Source of the DNA: a bacterium
GTDB taxonomy: Bacteria > Patescibacteriota > Minisyncoccia > UBA6257 > GWB1-50-10
Direction: 5' to 3'
DNA: 64,000 nucleotides
Assembly (NCBI GenBank): GCA_021791395.1
Contig: JAJYWR010000005.1
Coordinates: 21,259-85,258, forward strand
Shown piece by piece: positions 7,587 through 46,194 of this stretch (positions within the stretch are counted from its first letter, which is position 1; every line of letters starts with the position of its first letter). Position numbers and translations under genes: made by a program. The notes beneath the pieces were generated by a model. The model did not search any database. It had not been told where the DNA came from and saw only the letters and a list, made by a program, of their open reading frames with translations.

Positions 7587-8490
7587 GATGCCGGTCATCA
7601 TCGATACCGATCCGGGGCATGACGATGCCCTCGCCATCATGCTTCTCGAAAAATCCGGCGTGGCGGATATTAAGACCATCACCACGGTCGCCGGGAACAG
7701 TACAATCCAGAACGTGACCAATAATGCCCGGTACATACTCGATCTTTTAGATACTCCTACTCCTCTCTACTCGGGTTCTTCGGGACCGCTCAAGCGAAAA
7801 TTGGTACAGGCCGTTGTTCACGGCAAGAGTGGTCTCGATGGCGCCGAGATCAAAAAGCGTGAGAAATTGACGGGTGATGCCGTGGAGAAGATCGCATCGA
7901 TCATCCGGGAAAATCCCGGGAAGGTTTCGATTGTCGCCATTGGTCCGGAAACCAACTTAGCAAAAGCTTTCATCCGAGATCCGAAACTCCCCTCGCTCAT
8001 CAAACGACTGGTGATTATGGGCGGGGCAATTGACGTTCCCGGCAACAAAAACAGGGTCGCCGAATTCAATATCTTCGTCGACCCGGAAGCCGCGGATATT
8101 GTATGCAGGGCGGCAGTAAAAAAGGTGTTGATACCCCTCGACGTTTGCAACGATATCGTCTTACAAAGGACCGACTTTGAGAAATTGAGAAAAACTCCAC
8201 TCTCGGAATCCGTCTTAAAGATGATGGACAAATACATGTACGGACTGTCGGTCAACGAGAAAGTGAAGGGCGCATTGATGTACGATCCCCTCGCAGCCTA
8301 TTACCTCATCAATCCCTCAGCATACAAACTCCAATCCATGGATATTAAGATAGAAACGGATGGCGAGATCACGAGAGGAATGACCGTCGTGGAACGACGG
8401 ACATGGGCTCACAAGAACCCCAATGTATTGGTGGCGACCAAAATAGACGGGAGGGCATTCAAGAAAGATTTTCTAAAAATCCTTCAATAA
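7567..8490 (+). CDS. inosine/uridine-preferring nucleoside hydrolase family protein
   Basis: The N-terminal fingerprint is VIIDTDPGHDDALAI. It overlaps the HAD gene by 20 nt. Confidence 0.9.
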   Translation: MNKTKNRMPVIIDTDPGHDDALAIMLLEKSGVADIKTITTVAGNSTIQNVTNNARYILDLLDTPTPLYSGSSGPLKRKLVQAVVHGKSGLDGAEIKKREKLTGDAVEKIASIIRENPGKVSIVAIGPETNLAKAFIRDPKLPSLIKRLVIMGGAIDVPGNKNRVAEFNIFVDPEAADIVCRAAVKKVLIPLDVCNDIVLQRTDFEKLRKTPLSESVLKMMDKYMYGLSVNEKVKGALMYDPLAAYYLINPSAYKLQSMDIKIETDGEITRGMTVVERRTWAHKNPNVLVATKIDGRAFKKDFLKILQ

Positions 8491-9448
8491 CCCGGCGGAC
8501 GCCGGCGGCATCTTCCGCTTCCATGAGCTTCACGCGCAATTCTTTCGCGTCGTCGAAGCCGGAAACGTATGCCTTGAAGTGCTTCTTCATGACTTCGAAA
8601 TTCTTGATGCGGTTTTCCGTGTTGCTCTTATACAGTTTTTCGAAAAGCTCCGTATGCCGCACTAATCCTTCAAGCTTCTCCCGAAGATCGGGCACGCGGC
8701 CCGAGAAAAACCACGGATTCCCGAAAACGCCGCGCCCCACCATGACGCCGTCGAGGCCGGTTTCTTTCGCGCGCCGTTTCGCTTCGTCGAGCGATGCAAC
8801 GTCGCCGTTCCCCAAGAGGAGCGTCTTGGGCGCGATCCGGTCCCGCATCTCGACCAGCTTCGGCGCGAGGTCCCAGTGCGCCGGGACTTTCGACATTTCG
8901 CTCCGCGTCCGGAAGTGCATGGTCAAAGCCGCAATTCCCTCTTCGAGGAGCGCCGGCACCCACGTTTCAATCTCGTTCTTTCTGTATCCGATCCGGGTTT
9001 TGACCGAGATCGGCAGATCGGGAACGCTGCGCTTCGCGGCCCGGATGATTTCTTTCGCGAGCGCGGGATCTTTCATGAGTGCGGCTCCCCCGCCGGATTT
9101 TTCAACGCCCGCGTCAGGGCATCCCATGTTGATGTCCAAGCCGTCGAACCCGAGCTCCCGGATCAAGGGACTTATGCGCGCGAATAGTTCCGGCTTGCCG
9201 CCGAAGATCTGCGCAACAATCGGATGTTCCCGCTTGTCGTACCAGAGGTCGGGCAGAAGTTTTTCGCGGCCCTTCGAGAGGAGTCCCTCGGATGAAACGA
9301 ATTCAGTCCAGAAAACATCCGGTCTGCCCAAGTCCGCGAACATCTGCCGGAATGCCGCGTCCGTCACGTTCGCCATGGGTGCGATCGCCATAATCGGTTT
9401 CTTGAGTTTTTTCCAAAACCCCAAATTCGGTTCAGTGTCTCGCTTCAT
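8459..9448 (-). CDS. dus: tRNA-dihydrouridine synthase
   Basis: It carries MAIAPMANVTDAAFRQM and GFDGLDINMGCP (catalytic Cys). The ORF 8459..9490 is trimmed to MKRDTEPN, whose ATG lies inside a 16-bp palindrome. Confidence 0.85.
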   Translation of the reverse strand: MKRDTEPNLGFWKKLKKPIMAIAPMANVTDAAFRQMFADLGRPDVFWTEFVSSEGLLSKGREKLLPDLWYDKREHPIVAQIFGGKPELFARISPLIRELGFDGLDINMGCPDAGVEKSGGGAALMKDPALAKEIIRAAKRSVPDLPISVKTRIGYRKNEIETWVPALLEEGIAALTMHFRTRSEMSKVPAHWDLAPKLVEMRDRIAPKTLLLGNGDVASLDEAKRRAKETGLDGVMVGRGVFGNPWFFSGRVPDLREKLEGLVRHTELFEKLYKSNTENRIKNFEVMKKHFKAYVSGFDDAKELRVKLMEAEDAAGVRRVIEGFLENLS

Positions 9449-9553
9449 ATATATGAAGACAGCGTACCAGAGATGGTACGCTGAGTTCAAATCGCGGCAC
9501 GGATTTATATGGAGCCTTGCCTGTATAAAAATTGGTCAGAAAAAAAACTGCAA

Positions 9554-10621
9554 TTAAACTTGAGGTGCGTTTTCTTGGAAATATCTATTCAAAACCTTCA
9601 CAAATTCTCTCGTGTCCAAAAAATAATTTGGATAAGCCCTATGCAATTCTCTTGTTGTCTCCGCAGAAACGAGAACAATATCTCTATCCTCTTTGTTTTT
9701 TATCATTCTTTCTTCATACTTTGAATACTCAGAATTTGCCAGTTCTTCTTGTGATTTCTTATACGCCGTAATACTTAACTCTCTTGTTGTTAGATCCAGA
9801 TTTAAAAGATAAAAATCATACTTAGCACCCTTCTCTTTTTCGAAATCCTCAATAACCCTATGAATCTTTGTCCATTCGTTCATCTTTTTTACAACCTTTA
9901 ATTTTCTTGCCAGTACCCGTATCTGCTCTCGCAATTCTTGTTTATTTATAGGAGTTTCTGGGACTATAGGCGTTTCTTCCATATTCGCAAATGCAGAACT
10001 AACTAACTTAAAAAAATCCATCCAGTCTTTCTGCCCTTCATTCGATTTTATTGCCTGCCTAGTAAAATGATCCACTGTTTCCACTGCAGTCGCCCAATAA
10101 TGCTGCAACTTTGTCCTTATTTGTATCTCAATTAATAAACCATTATAATTCTCATTTTTATCGCTGAAGTATTTATAAACTAAGTGGACGCTTCTGTAAC
10201 CATCTCTCTTAGGACTTTGAATATGGTCATTTATTTTTGCCAATCCGTGTTTAATCCTGCTTTTTTTATATTTTTCAACAAGATTCTTTACATCACCAAC
10301 ACTTTGCAAAACTGCTCTGCATCCGCCAACATCTTGCATTTGAGACATCTTCATTGTACTGGTTTGTCCACGTCTAAGTTTTTTAATAATAGACGAGATG
10401 CGTTTAAGACGACGCACGACAAGGGCACTTGAATCAACTTGTTTGGATACGTGCTTAAGCCTCACGGCAAATATGTGGAGTGGAAAACTATGCGAAGATC
10501 TCCAATTACTCAAAACGTCCATTGCTTGCCCATACGATGACTGAGAATTATTTACTGCGACGAGAATTTTCCCCGCTTTATTTATCTGATTTTTTGTATA
10601 TTTTAATTTAGTCCATTCCAT
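9554..10621 (-). CDS. RelA/SpoT-homologue synthetase-domain protein (alarmone-synthetase fold only) with a ~150-aa C-terminal extension
   Basis: Synthetase motifs are RLKRISSIIKK, DVGGCR, GYRSVHLVY and EIQIRTKLQHYWA. There is no HD hydrolase, TGS or ACT region. GC is markedly lower than in the flanking genes. Confidence 0.85.
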   Translation of the reverse strand: MEWTKLKYTKNQINKAGKILVAVNNSQSSYGQAMDVLSNWRSSHSFPLHIFAVRLKHVSKQVDSSALVVRRLKRISSIIKKLRRGQTSTMKMSQMQDVGGCRAVLQSVGDVKNLVEKYKKSRIKHGLAKINDHIQSPKRDGYRSVHLVYKYFSDKNENYNGLLIEIQIRTKLQHYWATAVETVDHFTRQAIKSNEGQKDWMDFFKLVSSAFANMEETPIVPETPINKQELREQIRVLARKLKVVKKMNEWTKIHRVIEDFEKEKGAKYDFYLLNLDLTTRELSITAYKKSQEELANSEYSKYEERMIKNKEDRDIVLVSAETTRELHRAYPNYFLDTREFVKVLNRYFQENAPQV

Positions 10622-10777
10622 AACCGTTTCATTTACTATAGGAAGATTAGAACTTGTTGTCGGAGTTAATCTACCTCACCGCCCTCAATTCCGCTTTCTT
10701 GCCTTCCGGAGCTTTTGCGAAGGAGGGCGCACCGCTGGGGAGAGATCTTACCGTCACGGTCTTCCGTGGCGGGAAGA

Positions 10778-11227
10778 TCATTTTCCGATATACATCCGGA
10801 TCCCTTCCAGAATGCCGGATGTGAAATATTCAGCCGGATCAATTTTCGCCAAGTCCAACCATTGATAGCCGGCGTGCTCGCTGCTGATCTTCAATTCTCC
10901 GCCGCCATAGTGGGCCTCAAAGAAAAGATACAGCACATGGATGTCTTTCCCCGAGCTGGTCATCGAAGCCGGGATCAAATGCCTGCCCACGGCGACCGGG
11001 TTCTGCTGGATTTGGAACTCGACATTCCCAATTTCTTCGACTACTTCTCTCGCGATGATGTTTGAAAAATCGGTTTTAAATTCATCTGTATCGATCCGGC
11101 CGCCCGGCAGGTCATAGAAACCGGCATAGCTGCCATTATGAACGGCCTTCAAAGCGAGTATCTTGCCCTCGCTGTTTTTCAGTAAAAGCTTCAGCGATAC
11201 TTGATAAAAATCCTTTTCTTTTTTCAT
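10778..11227 (-). CDS. NUDIX hydrolase
   Basis: The NUDIX box is GGRIDTDEFKTDFSNIIAREVVEEIG. The ORF 10778..11347 is trimmed to MKKEKDFYQV because the extension would read through the tRNA-Ser gene. Confidence 0.85.
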   Translation of the reverse strand: MKKEKDFYQVSLKLLLKNSEGKILALKAVHNGSYAGFYDLPGGRIDTDEFKTDFSNIIAREVVEEIGNVEFQIQQNPVAVGRHLIPASMTSSGKDIHVLYLFFEAHYGGGELKISSEHAGYQWLDLAKIDPAEYFTSGILEGIRMYIGK

Positions 11228-11244
11228 GGCGATTCTCCTGTTTG

Positions 11245-11331
11245 CGGAGGCGGAAGGATTCGAACCTTCGATGCCCTTGCGGGCATAACGGTTTTCAAGA
11301 CCGTCCGTTTCAACCGCTCGCGCACGCCTCC
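11245..11331 (-). tRNA. tRNA-Ser (anticodon UGA)
   Basis: Hand-folded: acceptor GGAGGCG/CGCCTCC, anticodon arm ACGGT-CTTGAAA-ACCGT, long variable arm ATGCCC-GCAA-GGGCAT, T arm GAAGG-TTCGAAT-CCTTC. CCA is not encoded. Confidence 0.9.
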
Positions 11332-11799: not shown

Positions 11800-12417
11800 A
11801 TGCTGAAAATCTACCTCGCGCGTCACGGGCAGGACACAGATAATGCCGCGGGCATTTTGAACGGCCGGAGAGACGAACCCTTAACCGACCTTGGCAGGGA
11901 ACAAGCCCGCACGCTTGCGCGAGAGATCAAGGATGCCCACCTCACGTTCGATGCGGTATACACCTCGCCGCTCCAACGGGCGGAAGTAACTGCCAGAACC
12001 GTAACCGACGCGCTCGGCATCGCGCCGCCCGTCATTATGCCAAACCTCATCGAACGGGATTTCGGCATTATGACGGGGAAACTCACAAAAGACATCACGG
12101 CGCTCTGCGCGCCGGATGTCATCCAAGCCGACATTATCACCTATTTCCTTTCGCCCGAGGGAGCGGAAACGTTTCCCGATCTTGTCGAGCGAGGAAAGAA
12201 AGTAATCGGAGAGGTGCGGCGCCGACATCAAGACGGGAACATTCTCCTCGTCGGCCACGGCGACATGGGGAAAATGATCTATGCCGCCTACTACCACTTG
12301 GATTGGCAATCAGTCCTTACCATGTTCCACTTCGGCAATTCAGAACTCCTCCTCCTTTCGGAAGATTCTCCCGCTAAAGCCGCACACGTTTTCACATTCA
12401 AGCAGTTCAACCACTAG
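11800..12417 (+). CDS. histidine phosphatase family protein (phosphoglycerate-mutase-like)
   Basis: The N-terminal motif is LARHGQDTDN (RHG) and a distal LLVGHGDM motif is present. Confidence 0.85.
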   Translation: MLKIYLARHGQDTDNAAGILNGRRDEPLTDLGREQARTLAREIKDAHLTFDAVYTSPLQRAEVTARTVTDALGIAPPVIMPNLIERDFGIMTGKLTKDITALCAPDVIQADIITYFLSPEGAETFPDLVERGKKVIGEVRRRHQDGNILLVGHGDMGKMIYAAYYHLDWQSVLTMFHFGNSELLLLSEDSPAKAAHVFTFKQFNH

Positions 12418-12565
12418 ACACAAAACAACCTATCTGTAGCTTGCCACAAGTGGTTCTACCGTTGGGTATGCGAGTGGTGTTTGTTGGAACCTCTATCTGG
12501 AAGAAGATCAAAAATGACCGGTTGAGCAAATCGACCCAACTCCCCCCTCATGGTATCCTTATGGC

Positions 12566-13066
12566 ATGGGGAAAGAGGAAAATAACTACGCTTTCATCGA
12601 CAGCCAGAATGTCTATCAAGGCATTAAGAGCTTGGGCTGGAATCTTGATTGGGGAAGGTTCAGAAAATATCTCAAAGAGAAATACGCCGTTACGACCGCT
12701 TATCTCTTCATCGGCTTCATGCCGGAACATAACGATATCTATGACGATCTCCAGAAAGCTGGATTTGTTCTCAAATTCAAGCCGGTCCTTCCGAACAGTG
12801 ACGGCGGCGTAAAGGGCAACGTAGATGCCGATTTGGTCCTCCAAGCTATGCTGGACTACGGGAAGTATGATAAGGCAGTCATCATATCAAGCGACGGGGA
12901 TTTCTATTCCCTGGTGCGGCACCTGCACCAGAACGGTAAACTGAAACTCGTGATGAGCCCGTATGTAAAAACCTGCTCGACACTTCTCAAGAAATCAGCC
13001 AAGGAAAAGATCATCTATATGGACAATCTCAAGAAGAAGCTCGGTAAAAGAAAAAGCACCGCTTAG
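12566..13066 (+). CDS. NYN-domain (LabA/DUF88-like) predicted ribonuclease
   Basis: It carries YAFIDSQNV, GNVDADLV and VIISSDGDF acidic motifs. Confidence 0.75.
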   Translation: MGKEENNYAFIDSQNVYQGIKSLGWNLDWGRFRKYLKEKYAVTTAYLFIGFMPEHNDIYDDLQKAGFVLKFKPVLPNSDGGVKGNVDADLVLQAMLDYGKYDKAVIISSDGDFYSLVRHLHQNGKLKLVMSPYVKTCSTLLKKSAKEKIIYMDNLKKKLGKRKSTA

Positions 13067-15654: not shown

Positions 15655-16041
15655 ATGCAATACAATGACCATATGTGGCATTTCATAAAAAGTTACGGGA
15701 TTTATTTCCTGACGGGCGGTCTATTCACAACTCTCATCGTCGCGCTTGAAGAGAACGGCGAGCGCCTCCTTTCTGGATTTGCGACGCTGATCCCCGTCTT
15801 CACTCTCGTCGCCTATTTTTTCATCGGCGAATCGAGGGGTGGCGCGGCCGTAGGGCAACATGCATGGTTCGTACTTATCGGCACTATCGTTTCCTGGGTC
15901 CCTTATATGGTTCTCGTCGCGATTCTCGCGCCGAAGATCGGATCGAAGGCCGCAATCGGCGTCGGCCTCCTCGCATTTTTCCTCTGCGCATTTGCGTACC
16001 TTGAGATTGTTTATCACTACCGTCTCTTCGGCGAAGCGTAG
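15655..16041 (+). CDS. small multi-pass membrane protein (GlpM-like pattern)
   Basis: It has four TM helices and the segment LIPVFTLVAYFFIGESRGG. The start is chosen at MQYNDHMW to avoid overlap with the divergent gene. Confidence 0.45.
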   Translation: MQYNDHMWHFIKSYGIYFLTGGLFTTLIVALEENGERLLSGFATLIPVFTLVAYFFIGESRGGAAVGQHAWFVLIGTIVSWVPYMVLVAILAPKIGSKAAIGVGLLAFFLCAFAYLEIVYHYRLFGEA

Positions 16042-16370
16042 ACCCCCTATCAATCCCATAAGCATCTTCCCGAATACCTGCGAGTGAATTTTATTGGGAG
16101 TGCTCTTAAAATTCCCACGATCGCCGCGCCGCCGAGCCAGGCTCTCCCGCCGAATGGCAAATCGGGCGGCGAGGAGCGGGCGAACGAGGAGAATTTTTTG
16201 CGCTCGAAATATTTTTGAACGAGCAAGCATTCGGAAAAATGCGCCGCACAAAAGTTATCCACAGATTTTCTCCACAAAAAACTCTATAATTAAAGAAGAA
16301 GAGGAATTTACTGCGATTGAGGAGTCGACAGTCCAACGGTAAATTTCGTAAAACGAAAAACAAAAAAACA

Positions 16371-16451
16371 ATGGCAGCAAAAAAGAAGGCAAAGAAGACG
16401 GCGAAGAAGTCTTCAAAAAAGGCCAAAAAGAGCGGCAAAAAAAGAAGATAA
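16371..16451 (+). CDS. candidate 26-aa Lys/Ala-rich basic micro-protein
   Basis: This ORF is too short to appear in the supplied track. It translates as MAAKKKAKKTAKKSSKKAKKSGKKRR* and is followed 12 nt later by a strong terminator. Confidence 0.4.
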   Translation: MAAKKKAKKTAKKSSKKAKKSGKKRR

Positions 16452-16462
16452 ATTGCTCTTAT

Positions 16463-16496
16463 AATCACCCCTCATGAGCGAGGGGTGATTATTTTT
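16463..16496 (+). terminator. intrinsic terminator
   Basis: The stem is AATCACCCCTC paired with GAGGGGTGATT, with loop ATGAGC, followed by ATTTTT. Confidence 0.75.
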
Positions 16497-16522
16497 ATGC
16501 CTGCTATAATAAATGAAATCCC

Positions 16523-17557
16523 ATGAGTGACCTCAAAACTGTACGAATCATCAAAAAAACCATGCCAGCAGTCGTTTCGATCGTCCTCTCAAAGAACGTC
16601 GATGACTTAAAAGCAGAACTTCAAAGAGAAGGGGGGCGGGGAAAAGCCATAAAAATCCCGGAAGATAAAATATCACCCGAAGGTACGGTTGAAATCGGCG
16701 GCGGTTCGGGATTCTTCGTTGACAAAAGCGGCATCGTTCTCACAAATAAGCATGTCATCGCCGAATCGAATGTACGCTACAAGATCACAACCGATGATGA
16801 ACGGACATTCGATGCGGAACTTTTGGCGCGCGATCCGATCAACGATATTGCCATACTAAAAACAAAGGACAGCGAAGGGAGAACGTTCCCCTTTTTGAAG
16901 CTCGGCGATTCTTCGAGCCTCGACTTGGGCCAAACGGTCCTCGCCATCGGAAACGCGCTTGGTATTTTTAAAAATACGGTTTCCCTCGGAATCATTTCCG
17001 GCCTCTCGCGTTCTGTAAAAGCGAAACCCGATCCCGAAAAACCGGTTCAAGAACTCCGGGGACTCATCCAAACCGATGCCGCCATCAACCCCGGGAATTC
17101 CGGAGGTCCCTTGGTTGACATGTCGGGTCGCGTCATTGGTATCAACGCAGCCGTCGTCGCCGGAGCGCAAAATATCAATTTCGCGATCCCCGTGAACACA
17201 GCGAAACGCGATATTCACGATCTCAAAAAATTCGGGAGGATCCGCCGGCCGCTCCTCGGCATCCGGTATGTGACGTTGGATAACGTGCTTTCCCGATCGA
17301 TGCACACCACCTTAACCCACGGCGCATATGTAACAAAAGAACATCCGCTGGACGACGCCGTCATCGTCGGAAGCCCTGCCGCGAAAGCGGGCATCAAGGA
17401 GAAGGACATCATCACGGAGTGGAACGGTAAGCCGATTATGGGTGGCTCAATCCAAGAGCTTTTGGAAAACTCGAACGTCGGCGATGAAATCAAATTGAAA
17501 GTAGTGAGGAACGGCAAAACATTTGAGACAAGTGTTATCCTCGCCGAACGAAAATAG
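16523..17557 (+). CDS. HtrA/DegP-family trypsin-like serine protease with C-terminal PDZ domain
   Basis: The catalytic triad context is TNKHV, NDIAILK and GNSGGPLVD. A PDZ-like C-terminus is present (GSPAAKAGIKEKDII). Confidence 0.9.
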   Translation: MSDLKTVRIIKKTMPAVVSIVLSKNVDDLKAELQREGGRGKAIKIPEDKISPEGTVEIGGGSGFFVDKSGIVLTNKHVIAESNVRYKITTDDERTFDAELLARDPINDIAILKTKDSEGRTFPFLKLGDSSSLDLGQTVLAIGNALGIFKNTVSLGIISGLSRSVKAKPDPEKPVQELRGLIQTDAAINPGNSGGPLVDMSGRVIGINAAVVAGAQNINFAIPVNTAKRDIHDLKKFGRIRRPLLGIRYVTLDNVLSRSMHTTLTHGAYVTKEHPLDDAVIVGSPAAKAGIKEKDIITEWNGKPIMGGSIQELLENSNVGDEIKLKVVRNGKTFETSVILAERK

Positions 17558-43511: not shown

Positions 43512-44150
43512 TTAAATATTTGTCAATATATCCTCTTTTGTAAATTCACCGACTCGCGTACGTACGAGTTCCGCGACATACCCGCCGACACCCAAAGTAT
43601 CCCCCACGTCCCGGGCAAGCGATCGGACGTATACGCCGGGGCCGGTTACAACTTTCAATTCCAGATACGGCGGATTATATGAAAGGATTTTGATCGAAAA
43701 AATTTTCACGCGGCGCGAATTCATCTCGGGTATTTTTCCGCGGCGCGCGAGCTTATATGCCGGCACGCCTTTTATTTTCAGGGCACTGTATACCGGCGGT
43801 ACTTGGTCGACGACGCCGACGAACGACGGTAAAATTTTTTCAATGCGCTCGATATCCGGAAAACGTTCCCGCTCGACAATTTCTTTTTCCCCTTCTTCAT
43901 CGCCCGTCGTGCTCCGCACGCCGAGCCTTATCTTTACGAGATATTCTTTTTCTTCCCCTGCCGCCATATTGAGTCGCTTCGTTGCTGCGCGCCCAACGCC
44001 GACGACGAGGATGCCCGACGCCAATGGATCGAGTGTCCCCGCGTGCCCGATCTTTCTTGTCCCCATTTTCTTTTTCAATCGATTGAGGAACTCAGCCGAT
44101 GTCGGTCCCTTCGGTTTCCACGCGGCGAATATTTCACCTCCCTCATTCAT
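43512..44150 (-). CDS. truB: tRNA pseudouridine(55) synthase
   Basis: The catalytic motif is GHAGTLDPLASGILVVGVG. Confidence 0.9.
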   Translation of the reverse strand: MNEGGEIFAAWKPKGPTSAEFLNRLKKKMGTRKIGHAGTLDPLASGILVVGVGRAATKRLNMAAGEEKEYLVKIRLGVRSTTGDEEGEKEIVERERFPDIERIEKILPSFVGVVDQVPPVYSALKIKGVPAYKLARRGKIPEMNSRRVKIFSIKILSYNPPYLELKVVTGPGVYVRSLARDVGDTLGVGGYVAELVRTRVGEFTKEDILTNI

Positions 44151-44153
44151 GTG

Positions 44154-44519
44154 TTAAATATTTTCGTAATGTTTCACGTCGAACCCATTTCCCCAATTCT
44201 TCGTGAGCGCAATGACGTCGAGTCGCCATCCTTTTTTGTCGTCGATTAATTCTTCATGGGCTCCCGCATATACTCGCGCCGCTCTCGTAAATTTCTCAAT
44301 CTTTGATTTTGTCATCTGCTCTTCCGCTTCGATGCCGGGACCGACAACCGTTTTTACTTCGACGAAGACCAGTACCTTGTCCGGCGCGACGGCAACGATA
44401 TCGAGTTCCCCCCATTTTTTTCTGTTATTTCTTTCAATGATACGCCAACCGATCTTTTGCAAATATCTCGAAGCAAAATTTTCTCCCCGTCTTCCCAATT
44501 CGGATCTTCCATCCCTCAT
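44154..44519 (-). CDS. YraN-family (UPF0102) predicted endonuclease
   Basis: It carries GENFASRYLQKIGWRIIERN...GELDIVA...VFVEVK. The ORF is trimmed to MRDGRSELG. Confidence 0.8.
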   Translation of the reverse strand: MRDGRSELGRRGENFASRYLQKIGWRIIERNNRKKWGELDIVAVAPDKVLVFVEVKTVVGPGIEAEEQMTKSKIEKFTRAARVYAGAHEELIDDKKGWRLDVIALTKNWGNGFDVKHYENI

Positions 44520-44620
44520 ATATAAACTATACATCGAAAGCGTTGACATCAAAAAGCTGCCGTAATAAAGTAATGAAAGTTTATAAAAATCAAAATCATC
44601 TCACGAAAGGTAGGTGCGAA

Positions 44621-45262
44621 ATGAGAATCATTTTCCTGGTAGCCGCATTGTTTTTATCGGGATGCGCTTCGTCATTCTTTTCGGGCAAAAATCATGAACC
44701 TCTTCCGGAAAAGTTCTATGCCACCATCACAACCAAGGACGGCTACGGTTCCTCAATAAATCTCGGGGAAGGATATTTTTTATCCTGCAGCCACGTCATC
44801 AGAAACGATGCCGGCAAATTCGATAAAAAAATATGCCTGATGGAAGAATTCAAAACCGGACCTAAAATAGATTCTTCGGTAACGATAATTTCTGTAGACA
44901 CCCTCAATGATCTGGTACTTCTCAAATCTTCGAAATTGATCAATAAAACGAACATCAGATTCGCTCACGATCCTGTCCTTGAAAGGGTATATTGGGTTCA
45001 GCCGGCATTCTATTCAGATGGCAATCTTTTCTTTTTTGTATCCGGCAGGATATCCGGCTTCAATCCCGGGAATGTATTCCTCGATAAACCTGTTTTCGAT
45101 GGAGCTTCCGGTACTGGCATATTTGATAGAAATGGCAATTTAGTTGGCATGGCCCAAAGTACATTCATATATAGTAAGAATCTTCTGTTTGGTTCTTTGG
45201 CTAGTCCCCAAAAAATAGAGAAATTTCTGATCAAAAATAGAATAAAAATCCCCAAAATATGA
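44621..45262 (+). CDS. trypsin-like serine protease family lipoprotein (candidate)
   Basis: The ORF is trimmed to MRIIFLVAALFLSGCAS (a lipobox). Candidate triad residues are CSHVIRN, NDLVLLK and FDGASGTGIFD. GC is lower than in neighbouring genes. Confidence 0.55.
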   Translation: MRIIFLVAALFLSGCASSFFSGKNHEPLPEKFYATITTKDGYGSSINLGEGYFLSCSHVIRNDAGKFDKKICLMEEFKTGPKIDSSVTIISVDTLNDLVLLKSSKLINKTNIRFAHDPVLERVYWVQPAFYSDGNLFFFVSGRISGFNPGNVFLDKPVFDGASGTGIFDRNGNLVGMAQSTFIYSKNLLFGSLASPQKIEKFLIKNRIKIPKI

Positions 45263-45278
45263 ATTTTGGGGATTTTTT
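45248..45278 (+). terminator. intrinsic terminator overlapping the stop codon of the protease gene
   Basis: The stem is ATCCCCAAAAT paired with ATTTTGGGGAT, with loop ATGA, followed by TTTTTT. Confidence 0.8.
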
Positions 45279-45540
45279 GCTCAAAATAAGTGTTTCAAAA
45301 TGTTTCACGCTAAACATTTTTTGCATCAAAAAATCAAAAGTGTAGGTTTCATCGCATTATCAGCCTGTTAAACATTTTGAATGTTTTACAGGCTGGTTTT
45401 TCAATTTACCAGGTTTTTTAACTTTTCTGTGTTTTTTGACTTTTTATATCTTGGCCCCCCGCTCTCCCTCAAAAATTCGAGGAGAGCGGGGGGCCTTAGA
45501 TTCTGTGGAAAACTTTTGTCCGATCTCTCCGATAATATGG

Positions 45541-45683
45541 AAACAAAAAAGCACGGACTATTTTTCAATAAATCCGTGCCAAAACTTCCTGGATACTCGA
45601 CTACGACCGGCCTTCCGATCGCCATTTCAGCAATCGTACCTTCGCCGTGTATTTCTTTTATTGTTTGTGTACTATAATCTTAA
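45541..45683 (-). ncRNA. candidate ~140-nt small RNA (promoter-to-terminator unit, no convincing ORF)
   Basis: It is bounded by the minus-strand promoter at 45690..45718 and by a minus-strand terminator (stem GCACGGA 45551..45557 / TCCGTGC 45573..45579, followed by TTTTTTGTTT). It has an internal stem CGATTGC/GCGATCG. Confidence 0.35.
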
Positions 45684-45689
45684 GTTACT

Positions 45690-45718
45690 ATAATATCACA
45701 TTTATTATCATTTGTCAA
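45690..45718 (-). promoter_or_regulatory. near-consensus sigma-70 promoter (TTGACA-N17-TATTAT) on the minus strand
   Basis: The minus strand reads TTGACAAATGATAATAAATGTGATATTAT. Confidence 0.5.
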
Positions 45719-45728
45719 TTTCTCCCAA

Positions 45729-45758
45729 TTGACCTTATCTGCCGTTGGTTGGTACAAT
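45729..45758 (+). promoter_or_regulatory. sigma-70-like promoter (TTGACC-N18-TACAAT) on the plus strand, divergent from the previous one
   Basis: TTGACC is at 45729..45734 and TACAAT at 45753..45758. Confidence 0.5.
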
Positions 45759-45804
45759 CCACACTACCAAAATCACAGACCTTAACATAACCAAGAGGCA
45801 TCAT

Positions 45805-45936
45805 ATGGATCATATGGAAGAAACCCGTGATTTTTCACTCTCGGAATGCACATGGTTCGTGCGCCCGAGCAATGGGGACAAGATCGCCGCAGCGGCACTC
45901 AACGAGAATTGCATCGAGGGAGTACGCCGGACATAG
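45805..45936 (+). CDS. candidate 43-aa small protein
   Basis: It translates as MDHMEETRDFSLSECTWFVRPSNGDKIAAAALNENCIEGVRRT. An AAGAGG Shine-Dalgarno sequence lies 6 nt upstream, one of the best in this window. No homology was recognised. Confidence 0.35.
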   Translation: MDHMEETRDFSLSECTWFVRPSNGDKIAAAALNENCIEGVRRT

Positions 45937-46133
45937 AAAAGGATCTCCGACGAAAACGGCGCCGTCCACAAATTTTGGCAGTGCGACGGAAAGGCGACCG
46001 AGATGTTTTTAAGCCCTCGAATTCCGCTCCGGGGGAAGTTCCTTCTCTACCGACTTTTCCCGAAGGGGGAACGTCCTTTCACCGCGGAATTATTCCTTGA
46101 AGTCGGATAACGATCCGCCGACATTCTACCACG

Positions 46134-46164
46134 GCCGCCGAGCTCGAATTTCGGCGGCTTTTTT
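46134..46164 (+). terminator. intrinsic terminator upstream of ftsK
   Basis: The stem is GCCGCCGA paired with TCGGCGGC, followed by TTTTTT. Confidence 0.75.
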
Positions 46165-46194
46165 ATTGAAGAGGGGAACAAAAGAGAGTAAAAT

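Follow-up and report, generated by a model that had tools for sequence, protein, structure and literature searches.

A probable fused CapRel-type toxin-antitoxin encoded in a low-G+C islet of a Patescibacteriota genome

We analyzed a 64,000-nucleotide (nt) stretch of contig JAJYWR010000005.1 (assembly GCA_021791395.1, Patescibacteriota), hereafter called the window, in which a block of low G+C content (GC) harbors a gene for a RelA/SpoT homolog (RSH). This gene probably codes for a fused, single-polypeptide toxin-antitoxin of the CapRel type, i.e., an anti-phage sensor-effector. A first-pass annotation made from the sequence alone had proposed such a CapRel-like toxic small alarmone synthetase (toxSAS) instead of a housekeeping small alarmone synthetase (SAS). 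The proposal was upheld by a match to the defense-candidate family PDC-S33, by a full-length match to the structure of CapRel^SJ46 (PDB 7ZTB) and by the presence of a YPNY motif; toxicity and defense activity would follow by homology. Few immune proteins of bacteria have been demonstrated to sense a phage protein directly, and CapRel is one of them; the genomes of the bacteria of the Candidate Phyla Radiation (CPR, or Patescibacteria) are very small, and the viruses of these bacteria are for the most part unknown.

9554..10621, minus strand: predicted fused CapRel-type gene (355 amino acids [aa] plus stop; toxSYNTH toxin plus C-terminal antitoxin/sensor), an ATG-start open reading frame (ORF) matching PDC-S33 and CapRel^SJ46

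The length of 355 residues and the ATG start agree with the earlier description of the protein. The sole Pfam match is RelA_SpoT (PF04607; residues 71 to 178, E 5.9e-19), so that the reported absence of HD, TGS and ACT domains held, and all four synthetase motifs listed at that stage were located, at residues 71 (RLKRISSIIKK), 97 (DVGGCR), 141 (GYRSVHLVY) and 165 (EIQIRTKLQHYWA). PADLOC returned a single match, to PDC-S33 (E 1.5e-121, 404 bits), with residues 1 to 349 aligned to profile positions 1 to 343 of 349. The sequence of CapRel^SJ46, rebuilt from the alignment, also matched PDC-S33 alone, over its full length and with a lower score than the window protein (289 bits), which identifies PDC-S33 as the fused-CapRel family. 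The rebuilt sequence has every residue whose role in CapRel^SJ46 was described in the original paper, A77, R79, R116, Y155, L280, L307, V338, L339, A341, A351, Y352 and Y355 (PMC9712102). A full-length match to phrog_4773 was found in PHROGs (E 1e-100).

Searches of the PDB gave the same picture. With the single sequence, the best phmmer matches were 7ZTB and 9ERV (E 1e-46, 163 bits), aligning residues 5 to 348 with chain residues 12 to 370, whereas RelQ and RelP reached 44 to 58 bits over residues ~50 to 204 only. A clade profile built from 51 relatives, whose alignment also served for structure prediction and conservation analysis, scored CapRel at 226 bits (E 6e-66) and RelQ/RelP at 69 bits or less over residues ~66 to 184; that search returned no other toxSAS structure at E <= 10. 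The RelQ/YjbM equivalog of NCBIfam (NF053588), which has a cutoff of 320, was matched at 69.4 bits. The subfamily profile check suggested by the first-pass annotation thus places the protein end to end in PDC-S33. Identity to CapRel^SJ46 is 35% over 326 aligned residues, and the top match among GenBank phages is the Salmonella phage SJ46 gene (97% coverage, 31.8% identity).

The structure of the protein was modeled with AlphaFold2 (predicted local distance difference test [pLDDT] 85, predicted template modeling score 0.81). In CapRel^SJ46, toxSYNTH is followed by anchor helices, a pseudo-zinc-finger domain (pseudo-ZFD) whose second and third strands are separated by a helix, and a helical extension at the C terminus (PMC9712102); the order of the modeled elements agrees with this layout:

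10436..10621, minus strand: N-terminal helical extension, residues 1 to 62 (helices 10-21, 27-43 and 45-62), aligning with residues 12 to 70 of CapRel^SJ46
10052..10435, minus strand: toxSYNTH catalytic core, residues 63 to 190, with R71 and R102 as the predicted adenine clamp for the donor ATP, G-loop Y142, and E165/Q167
9836..10051, minus strand: anchor helices joining toxSYNTH to the sensor, residues 191 to 262 (helices 198-214, 227-241 and 243-262), aligning with alpha7 to alpha9 of CapRel^SJ46
9662..9835, minus strand: pseudo-zinc-finger-like sensor/antitoxin domain, residues 263 to 320 (modeled strands 270-276, 281-287 and 313-319, helix 289-308)
9557..9661, minus strand: switch region and C-terminal helix, residues 321 to 355 (modeled helices 323-329 and 333-349), holding the YXXY motif
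9623..9634, minus strand: codons of Y330-P331-N332-Y333, the putative YXXY auto-inhibition motif (reverse complement TAT CCA AAT TAT)

In the model, the synthetase core is five-stranded and the sensor three-stranded, the helix of the latter coming after its second strand and before its third. The ~150 additional C-terminal residues noted at first correspond to a structured module of 165 residues, which runs from the anchor helices through a pseudo-zinc-finger of beta-beta-alpha-beta topology to a hinged helix at the C terminus. Internal confidence is lowest in the block 321 to 330 (pLDDT 56). In Foldseek, the top three PDB matches were CapRel^SJ46 chains aligned over the full length (354 to 357 columns, E 1.4e-25 to 9e-25, TM-score 0.69 to 0.73, 30 to 31% identity), 7ZTB being described there as "Salmonella tRNA pyrophosphokinase CapRel." RelP and RelQ were aligned over ~175 to 208 columns, with TM-scores of 0.34 to 0.44 for the query and 0.58 to 0.80 for the target. 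By sequence and by model, the protein is homologous to CapRel^SJ46 over its full length, and its domains come in the same order.

We then compared the residues named for CapRel^SJ46 with their counterparts in the window protein. Those of R79 (R71), R116 (R102), Y155 (Y142), V338/L339 (V316/L317), A351 (A329) and the Y352-P-N-Y355 motif (Y330-P-N-Y333) are invariant in the 51 relatives. The two other positions of the neutralization scaffold show conservative changes, A77 on its toxin side being replaced by V69 and A341 by S319. As judged from the alignment, conservation extends to every residue that catalysis and auto-inhibition are known to require. The function of YXXY was established in CapRel^SJ46 and in ATfaRel2 (PMC9712102, PMC11782079). 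Mean column entropy peaks in the pseudo-ZFD (1.56, residues 263 to 320) and is lowest in the toxSYNTH core (0.99), and a sensor that varies most is the pattern reported for CapRel.

By analogy with CapRel^SJ46 and FaRel2:ATfaRel2 (PMC9712102, PMC11782079), we propose the following mechanism. In the resting state, the C-terminal module would dock on toxSYNTH, and the 3-10 helix formed by YPNY would lie between R71 and R102 and block binding of the donor ATP. A viral protein, e.g., the capsid protein of a virus of the CPR bacterium, would bind the variable pseudo-ZFD and keep the enzyme open. toxSYNTH would then move pyrophosphate from ATP onto the 3′-CCA ends of tRNAs, and aminoacylation and translation would be blocked by the modified tRNAs, so that the infection would be aborted. 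We favor tRNA rather than a nucleotide as the likely acceptor because the closest characterized homolog is a tRNA pyrophosphokinase, because neutralization is predicted to work through a YXXY motif at the donor site, a mode tied to tRNA-targeting toxSAS (PMC11782079), and because the model predicts order in the N-terminal helical extension. In FaRel2, the ordered N-terminal extension is a tRNA-recognition element that RelP and RelQ lack (PMC11782079), and we infer a tRNA-binding role for the N-terminal extension of the window protein by analogy.

The composition of the gene sets it apart from the rest of the window. Its GC is 0.356, as against a mean of 0.504 for the 64 kb (standard deviation [sd] 0.032 over 1068-nt windows); at ~4.6 sd under the mean, it is the lowest 1068-nt window in the stretch. 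Third codon positions (GC3) show the sharpest contrast, with 0.32 for the CapRel gene and 0.54 to 0.72 for eight other genes of the window. The foreign composition put forward in the first-pass annotation was therefore confirmed, and the hand counts on which it relied, 21/60 G+C at 9601-9660 and 37/60 at 9001-9060, were reproduced exactly. The islet and its surroundings comprise the following features:

9500..10650, no strand assigned: low-GC block (~0.29 to 0.46 GC in 100-nt windows), the gene plus ~30 to 55 nt per side, with sharp edges
10635..10663, minus strand: candidate promoter-like site, CCGACA-17 nt-TATAGT, 13 nt 5′ of the CapRel ATG (TATAGT at 10640..10635)
10778..11227, minus strand: NUDIX hydrolase gene, 149 aa (Pfam NUDIX, E 1.5e-07), with a host-like GC of 0.478
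11244..11331, minus strand: tRNA-Ser(UGA), directly after whose 3′ end the segment of NUDIX and CapRel genes starts
8459..9391, minus strand: dus, tRNA-dihydrouridine synthase (Pfam Dus; 83% identical to its counterparts in relatives L006 and L094), the native flank 3′ of the islet

The tRNA-Ser(UGA) gene, said to lie roughly 620 nt upstream, is 623 nt from the CapRel ATG. Since the NUDIX gene sits between the two, the low-GC islet is not directly adjacent to the tRNA gene. The CapRel gene is monocistronic, as claimed; its neighbors are the NUDIX gene and dus, and no separate antitoxin gene adjoins it. The TATAGT box is present at the position given, 13 nt upstream of the ATG, and five of the six nucleotides of this -10-like hexamer are kept in the L094 ortholog (TATGGT). 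However, the region contains 5 promoter-like sites when shuffled sequences predict 3.7 +/- 2.0, a number within chance, and TATAGT alone is thus no evidence of a promoter. The CapRel gene has no Shine-Dalgarno sequence, and AGGAGA precedes the neighboring NUDIX gene.

The locus was surveyed in related genomes. The Dus protein encoded beside the islet, used as a query, assigns the host to CPR bacteria of the Paceibacterota/Parcubacteria type. An identical protein is encoded on six metagenomic contigs, with the same neighbors in all. In L006, where Dus is 83% identical, the gene order is tRNA-Ser(CGA), tRNA-Arg, a 107-aa gene, tRNA-Val, tRNA-Ala, a 128-aa membrane protein gene, tRNA-Ser(UGA), dus, IUNH and HAD; dus directly follows tRNA-Ser(UGA), both the NUDIX and the RSH genes being absent, and homology to the window on the dus side starts again at ~9510. 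In L094, where the partial Dus is also 83% identical, the order is tRNA-Ser(UGA), NUDIX (74% aa identity), a 72-aa ORF, RSH (85% aa identity) and dus. The NUDIX plus CapRel segment is therefore a presence/absence polymorphism that starts at the 3′ end of tRNA-Ser(UGA). The window, L006 and L094 are roughly equidistant (Dus 82 to 84% identical), and ancestral gain and loss in L006 are consequently indistinguishable.

Relative to its L094 ortholog, the CapRel gene has a rate of nonsynonymous substitution (dN) of 0.076 and a synonymous rate (dS) of ~1.6, i.e., a dN/dS of 0.046, as compared with 0.17 for dus; in this pair alone, the sensor domain is well kept (dN 0.022). These rates show a functional gene maintained under strong purifying selection, neither a fresh arrival nor a remnant. 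The horizontal acquisition claimed at first is supported by the foreign GC3 and by the variable site, but a very recent arrival is not, because an 85% identical ortholog occupies the same site in the equally distant L094.

The possibility of a tRNA-targeted integrative island was considered and rejected. There is no integrase or recombinase among the neighbors of CapRel in the window, and the search for direct or inverted repeats marking a cassette or att sites around the islet yielded only short matches at chance level; the features that fit such an island are limited to the nearby tRNA gene and the presence/absence polymorphism. An Rfam scan of the whole window returned seven tRNAs and nothing else.

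Other features of this tRNA-rich region differ between the genomes. The 72-aa ORF of L094 (1026-1244) codes for two transmembrane segments and is flanked by imperfect direct repeats of ~20 nt, GGGGAATTGAAAGCGGTGGG and GGGGAATTGAAGGTGGGGGG; the window has one copy of the repeat, at 10674-10697, and no ORF. The tRNA-Ser(UGA) gene of the window (11244-11331) is identical at 58 to 61 of 88 nt to the syntenic tRNA-Ser(UGA) genes of L006 and L094, which share 80/88 with each other; its divergence suggests gene replacement or unusually fast divergence. A second indel, at 11800-13066, lies between a 127-aa membrane-protein gene and tRNA-Ala and comprises a histidine-phosphatase gene (11800-12417, plus strand) and a NYN-domain gene (12566-13066, plus strand), both absent from that place in L006.

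Relatives of the protein are numerous. A word-indexed search returned 5,697 proteins at E <= 1e-5, and an exhaustive search 1,497 clusters (50% identity) at E <= 1e-30, showing that the family is very large; nearly all of the top 150 have ~330 to 390 residues and cover near the whole query. Among the best 120 (48 to 85% identity), the only named taxa are CPR/Patescibacteria (Parcubacteria, Niyogi-, Moran-, Sung-, Komeili- and Buchananbacteria) and archaea labeled as DPANN (Woese-, Micr-, Nano- and Aenigmarchaeota, the bin labels being those given by the sources), the others being unclassified entries named "bacterium." Ten other loci that we inspected have gene contexts unrelated to that of the window, and in 9/9 loci measured the GC of the homolog is below that of its flanks (0.30 to 0.40 versus 0.35 to 0.48). 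The locus survey proposed in the first-pass annotation thus found one relative in which tRNA-Ser(UGA) is followed by dus without an RSH gene, and homologs of low GC in unrelated contexts.

Some of these contexts contain restriction genes. In a Sungbacteria locus (L089, 3576-7059), a serine recombinase gene, a helix-turn-helix gene, an EcoRI-type methylase gene and a GmrSD_N/HNH gene are found with CapRel, and in a Buchananbacteria locus (L179, 689-4078) the methylase-GmrSD/HNH-CapRel trio adjoins the genes for EF-G, S7 and S12. The proteins of the two trios, from metagenome-assembled genomes labeled as distinct CPR phyla, are 73%, 81% and 78% identical, and the trio is low in GC in both loci; the neighborhoods differ, the Sungbacteria copy lying beside the large serine recombinase gene. 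In another locus (L177), an N6_N4 methylase gene and a DUF6997 gene are upstream of CapRel, with KilA-N and Bro-N genes nearby. We propose, tentatively and as a possibility that we would not yet favor, that a distinct low-GC CapRel clade (48 to 85% identity) circulates among CPR/Patescibacteria and DPANN, sometimes as a portable methylase-GmrSD/HNH-CapRel module. A tRNA gene is present at most 1.5 kb upstream in 4/10 independent contexts (binomial P 0.004 to 0.05, depending on the assumed tRNA density), which is suggestive only.

Full-length relatives are also encoded on 275 IMG/VR viral contigs, with a best identity of 48%. Among GenBank phages, SJ46 alone provides full-length coverage, at 32% identity, and we identified no direct viral vector in either set. 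The closest IMG/VR relative is at 4508-5557 of L097, a contig named with a GVMAG prefix (IMGVR_UViG_GVMAG-S-1041346-124_000001). A small convergent DUF1508 gene (59 to 62 aa) lies just 3′ of the CapRel homolog in two CPR contexts (L177, 6188-6367; L180, 6177-6365).

Several observations weigh against a CapRel-type sensor-effector working like that of phage SJ46. Superposition of the model on the open crystal form of CapRel^SJ46 gave a root mean square deviation of 9.3 Å at a TM-score of 0.71; this high value suggests that the inter-domain angle of the model differs from that of the open form, and we do not claim a closed pose. Neither of the trigger contacts of CapRel^SJ46 is conserved. L280 is inside an insertion specific to that protein, and L307 is replaced by E281; with a pseudo-ZFD devoid of the insertion and with E281 in place of L307, the trigger must differ from that of CapRel^SJ46. 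PDC-S33 is a candidate label, and we found no paper naming it in the searchable literature. No other recognizable defense or mobility gene adjoins the islet in the window, and the promoter-like sites there, as described above, are not above chance. Finally, identity to the PDB's only characterized fused CapRel is 35%, which leaves room for another acceptor substrate.

This last point bears on what a fused CapRel-like switch would produce. As in FaRel and Tas1, the toxic product might be (pp)pApp, depleting ATP, instead of pyrophosphorylated tRNA; either acceptor is used among toxSAS whose cores are alike (PMC11782079), and the identity to the tRNA-targeting CapRel^SJ46 is just 35%. We nevertheless consider this product unlikely. 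The nearest characterized relative acts as a tRNA pyrophosphokinase, the N-terminal helices are predicted to form an ordered extension as in tRNA-binding toxSAS, and no (pp)pApp synthetase of the PDB, Tas1 included, was matched at E <= 10 by the single sequence or the profile. Moreover, Tis1-like domains block makers of (pp)pApp at the acceptor site, while a YXXY block of the donor site is the reported strategy for tRNA-targeting toxSAS (PMC11782079), and the C-terminal module of the window protein is of the pseudo-ZFD/YXXY donor-site type. It is less probable still that the gene encodes a housekeeping RelQ/RelP/RelV-like enzyme whose (p)ppGpp would serve the stringent-type response of a reduced genome. 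Such a role would account for the RelA_SpoT domain with all the synthetase motifs, and the best NCBIfam match, though weak, is YjbM/RelQ. That match is nonetheless at 69 bits for a cutoff of 320, and RelQ/RelP cover only residues ~66 to 184 (<=69 bits) when CapRel is matched over its full length at 163 to 226 bits. At 355 residues, the protein is not a stand-alone enzyme of ~200 to 250 residues, and its 165-residue C-terminal region has the invariant YXXY and a pseudo-ZFD fold. The foreign GC3, the absence of the gene from a close relative and the varied contexts, including some linked to restriction-modification (RM), also argue against a housekeeping function.

The gene might otherwise be a selfish or addictive fused toxin-antitoxin, or respond to stress, host-symbiont contact or some other cue that is not viral, with no role in phage defense. 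Fused toxin-antitoxin modules can persist as selfish elements, CPR bacteria are episymbionts in which other triggers are conceivable, and no phage, prophage or other defense gene adjoins CapRel in the window. This explanation is improbable, as one polypeptide cannot perform post-segregational killing through differential stability of toxin and antitoxin. In addition, near homologs are found in modules of RM and type IV restriction genes and in regions resembling prophages, relatives are encoded on the viral contigs, variability is concentrated in the sensor domain, and the PADLOC defense-candidate family includes the experimentally proven CapRel^SJ46. Lastly, the NUDIX and CapRel genes might form a two-gene unit, in which the modification would be undone or buffered by the NUDIX hydrolase, through removal of the 3′-pyrophosphate or degradation of a toxic nucleotide, in the manner of small alarmone hydrolase (SAH) antitoxins. 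SAH enzymes do neutralize toxSAS (PMC7229694), and both genes are present in the window and L094 and missing from L006. We regard this pairing as very improbable: the NUDIX gene is host-like in GC (0.478) and GC3 (0.59), unlike CapRel, it is less conserved between the window and L094 (74% versus 85%), the 72-aa ORF of L094 separates the two genes, and none of the other nine contexts has an adjoining NUDIX gene, that of L091 being unrelated and ~2.3 kb upstream.

A probable fused CapRel can thus be set beside the systems already characterized. CapRel^SJ46 (Salmonella phage SJ46; PDB 7ZTB and 9ERV) is a fused toxSAS and a tRNA pyrophosphokinase that is activated by the capsid protein Gp57 and by Bas11 Gp54. 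The window protein resembles it in length class (355 versus ~372 aa), domain order, sequence and fold over the full length, the catalytic R, R and Y, and an AYPNYF switch motif that is identical together with the V-L scaffold; both are monocistronic, have the sensor as their most variable domain and belong to the same PADLOC and PHROG families. It differs in that its gene is chromosomal, in an ultra-small CPR bacterium, and lies in a tRNA-adjacent indel with no recognizable prophage. CapRel^Ebc of Enterobacter chengduensis shares the fused architecture and, going by its description, requires the G-loop tyrosine Y153 for defense. It senses T7 Gp0.4 together with FtsZ, showing that the triggers of homologs differ and may involve host factors; the trigger of the window protein is therefore not predictable.

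Bipartite systems offer a second comparison. CapRel:ATcapRel (Mycobacterium sp. AB308) and PhRel:ATphRel belong to the same toxSAS subfamily neighborhood as the window protein, and their antitoxins are homologous to the fused C-terminal domain (PMC7229694, PMC11782079). They are two-gene operons, whereas the predicted toxin and antitoxin of the window form one polypeptide with no small antitoxin gene adjoining. In FaRel2:ATfaRel2 of Coprobacillus sp. D7, toxSYNTH pyrophosphorylates tRNA-CCA and is neutralized by a YXXY 3-10 helix that wedges between the two adenine-clamping arginines (PMC11782079); the same logic is predicted for Y330/Y333 with R71/R102. Unlike the C-terminal module of the window protein, the antitoxin of FaRel2 acts in trans, is circularly permuted and forms a heterotetramer, and FaRel2 gave no sequence match in the PDB with the window protein or the clade profile at E <= 10. 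The housekeeping RelQ and RelP share the synthetase fold and motifs, but lack the C-terminal anchor, the pseudo-ZFD, the YXXY module and the ordered N-terminal extension.

Earlier subfamily surveys placed CapRel in Proteobacteria, Cyanobacteria and Actinobacteria (PMC7229694), and we found no paper in the searchable literature that deals with CapRel together with Patescibacteria. What is new lies in the host range and the clade, possibly a new clade of fused CapRel; the mechanism is not new, and the advance is an incremental taxonomic extension. The locus extends the fused CapRel family to CPR/Patescibacteria, with all mechanistic residues intact and under strong purifying selection. The candidate label PDC-S33 becomes a mechanistic annotation, as it designates the same family as a validated fused CapRel. 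The variable pseudo-ZFD of the clade could serve as bait for structural proteins of CPR or DPANN viruses. Should a clade spanning CPR and DPANN be confirmed, tRNA-CCA pyrophosphorylation would operate as abortive infection across the boundary between bacteria and archaea, and fused CapRel would represent a favored form of one-gene immunity for minimal genomes, sensing structural proteins of poorly known viruses.

Two further regions of the window deviate in composition. At 44150-46190, a second low-GC block (~0.38 GC) contains a UPF0102/NERD nuclease-like gene (44154-44552, minus strand) and a gene for a trypsin-like putative lipoprotein (44543-45262, plus strand), followed at 45263-46194 by ~900 nt with no convincing ORF or Rfam match. 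At 16000-16750, a smaller GC dip (~0.40 to 0.44) with a strong positive AT skew is mostly noncoding and lies upstream of a gene for an HtrA-like protease (16523-17557).

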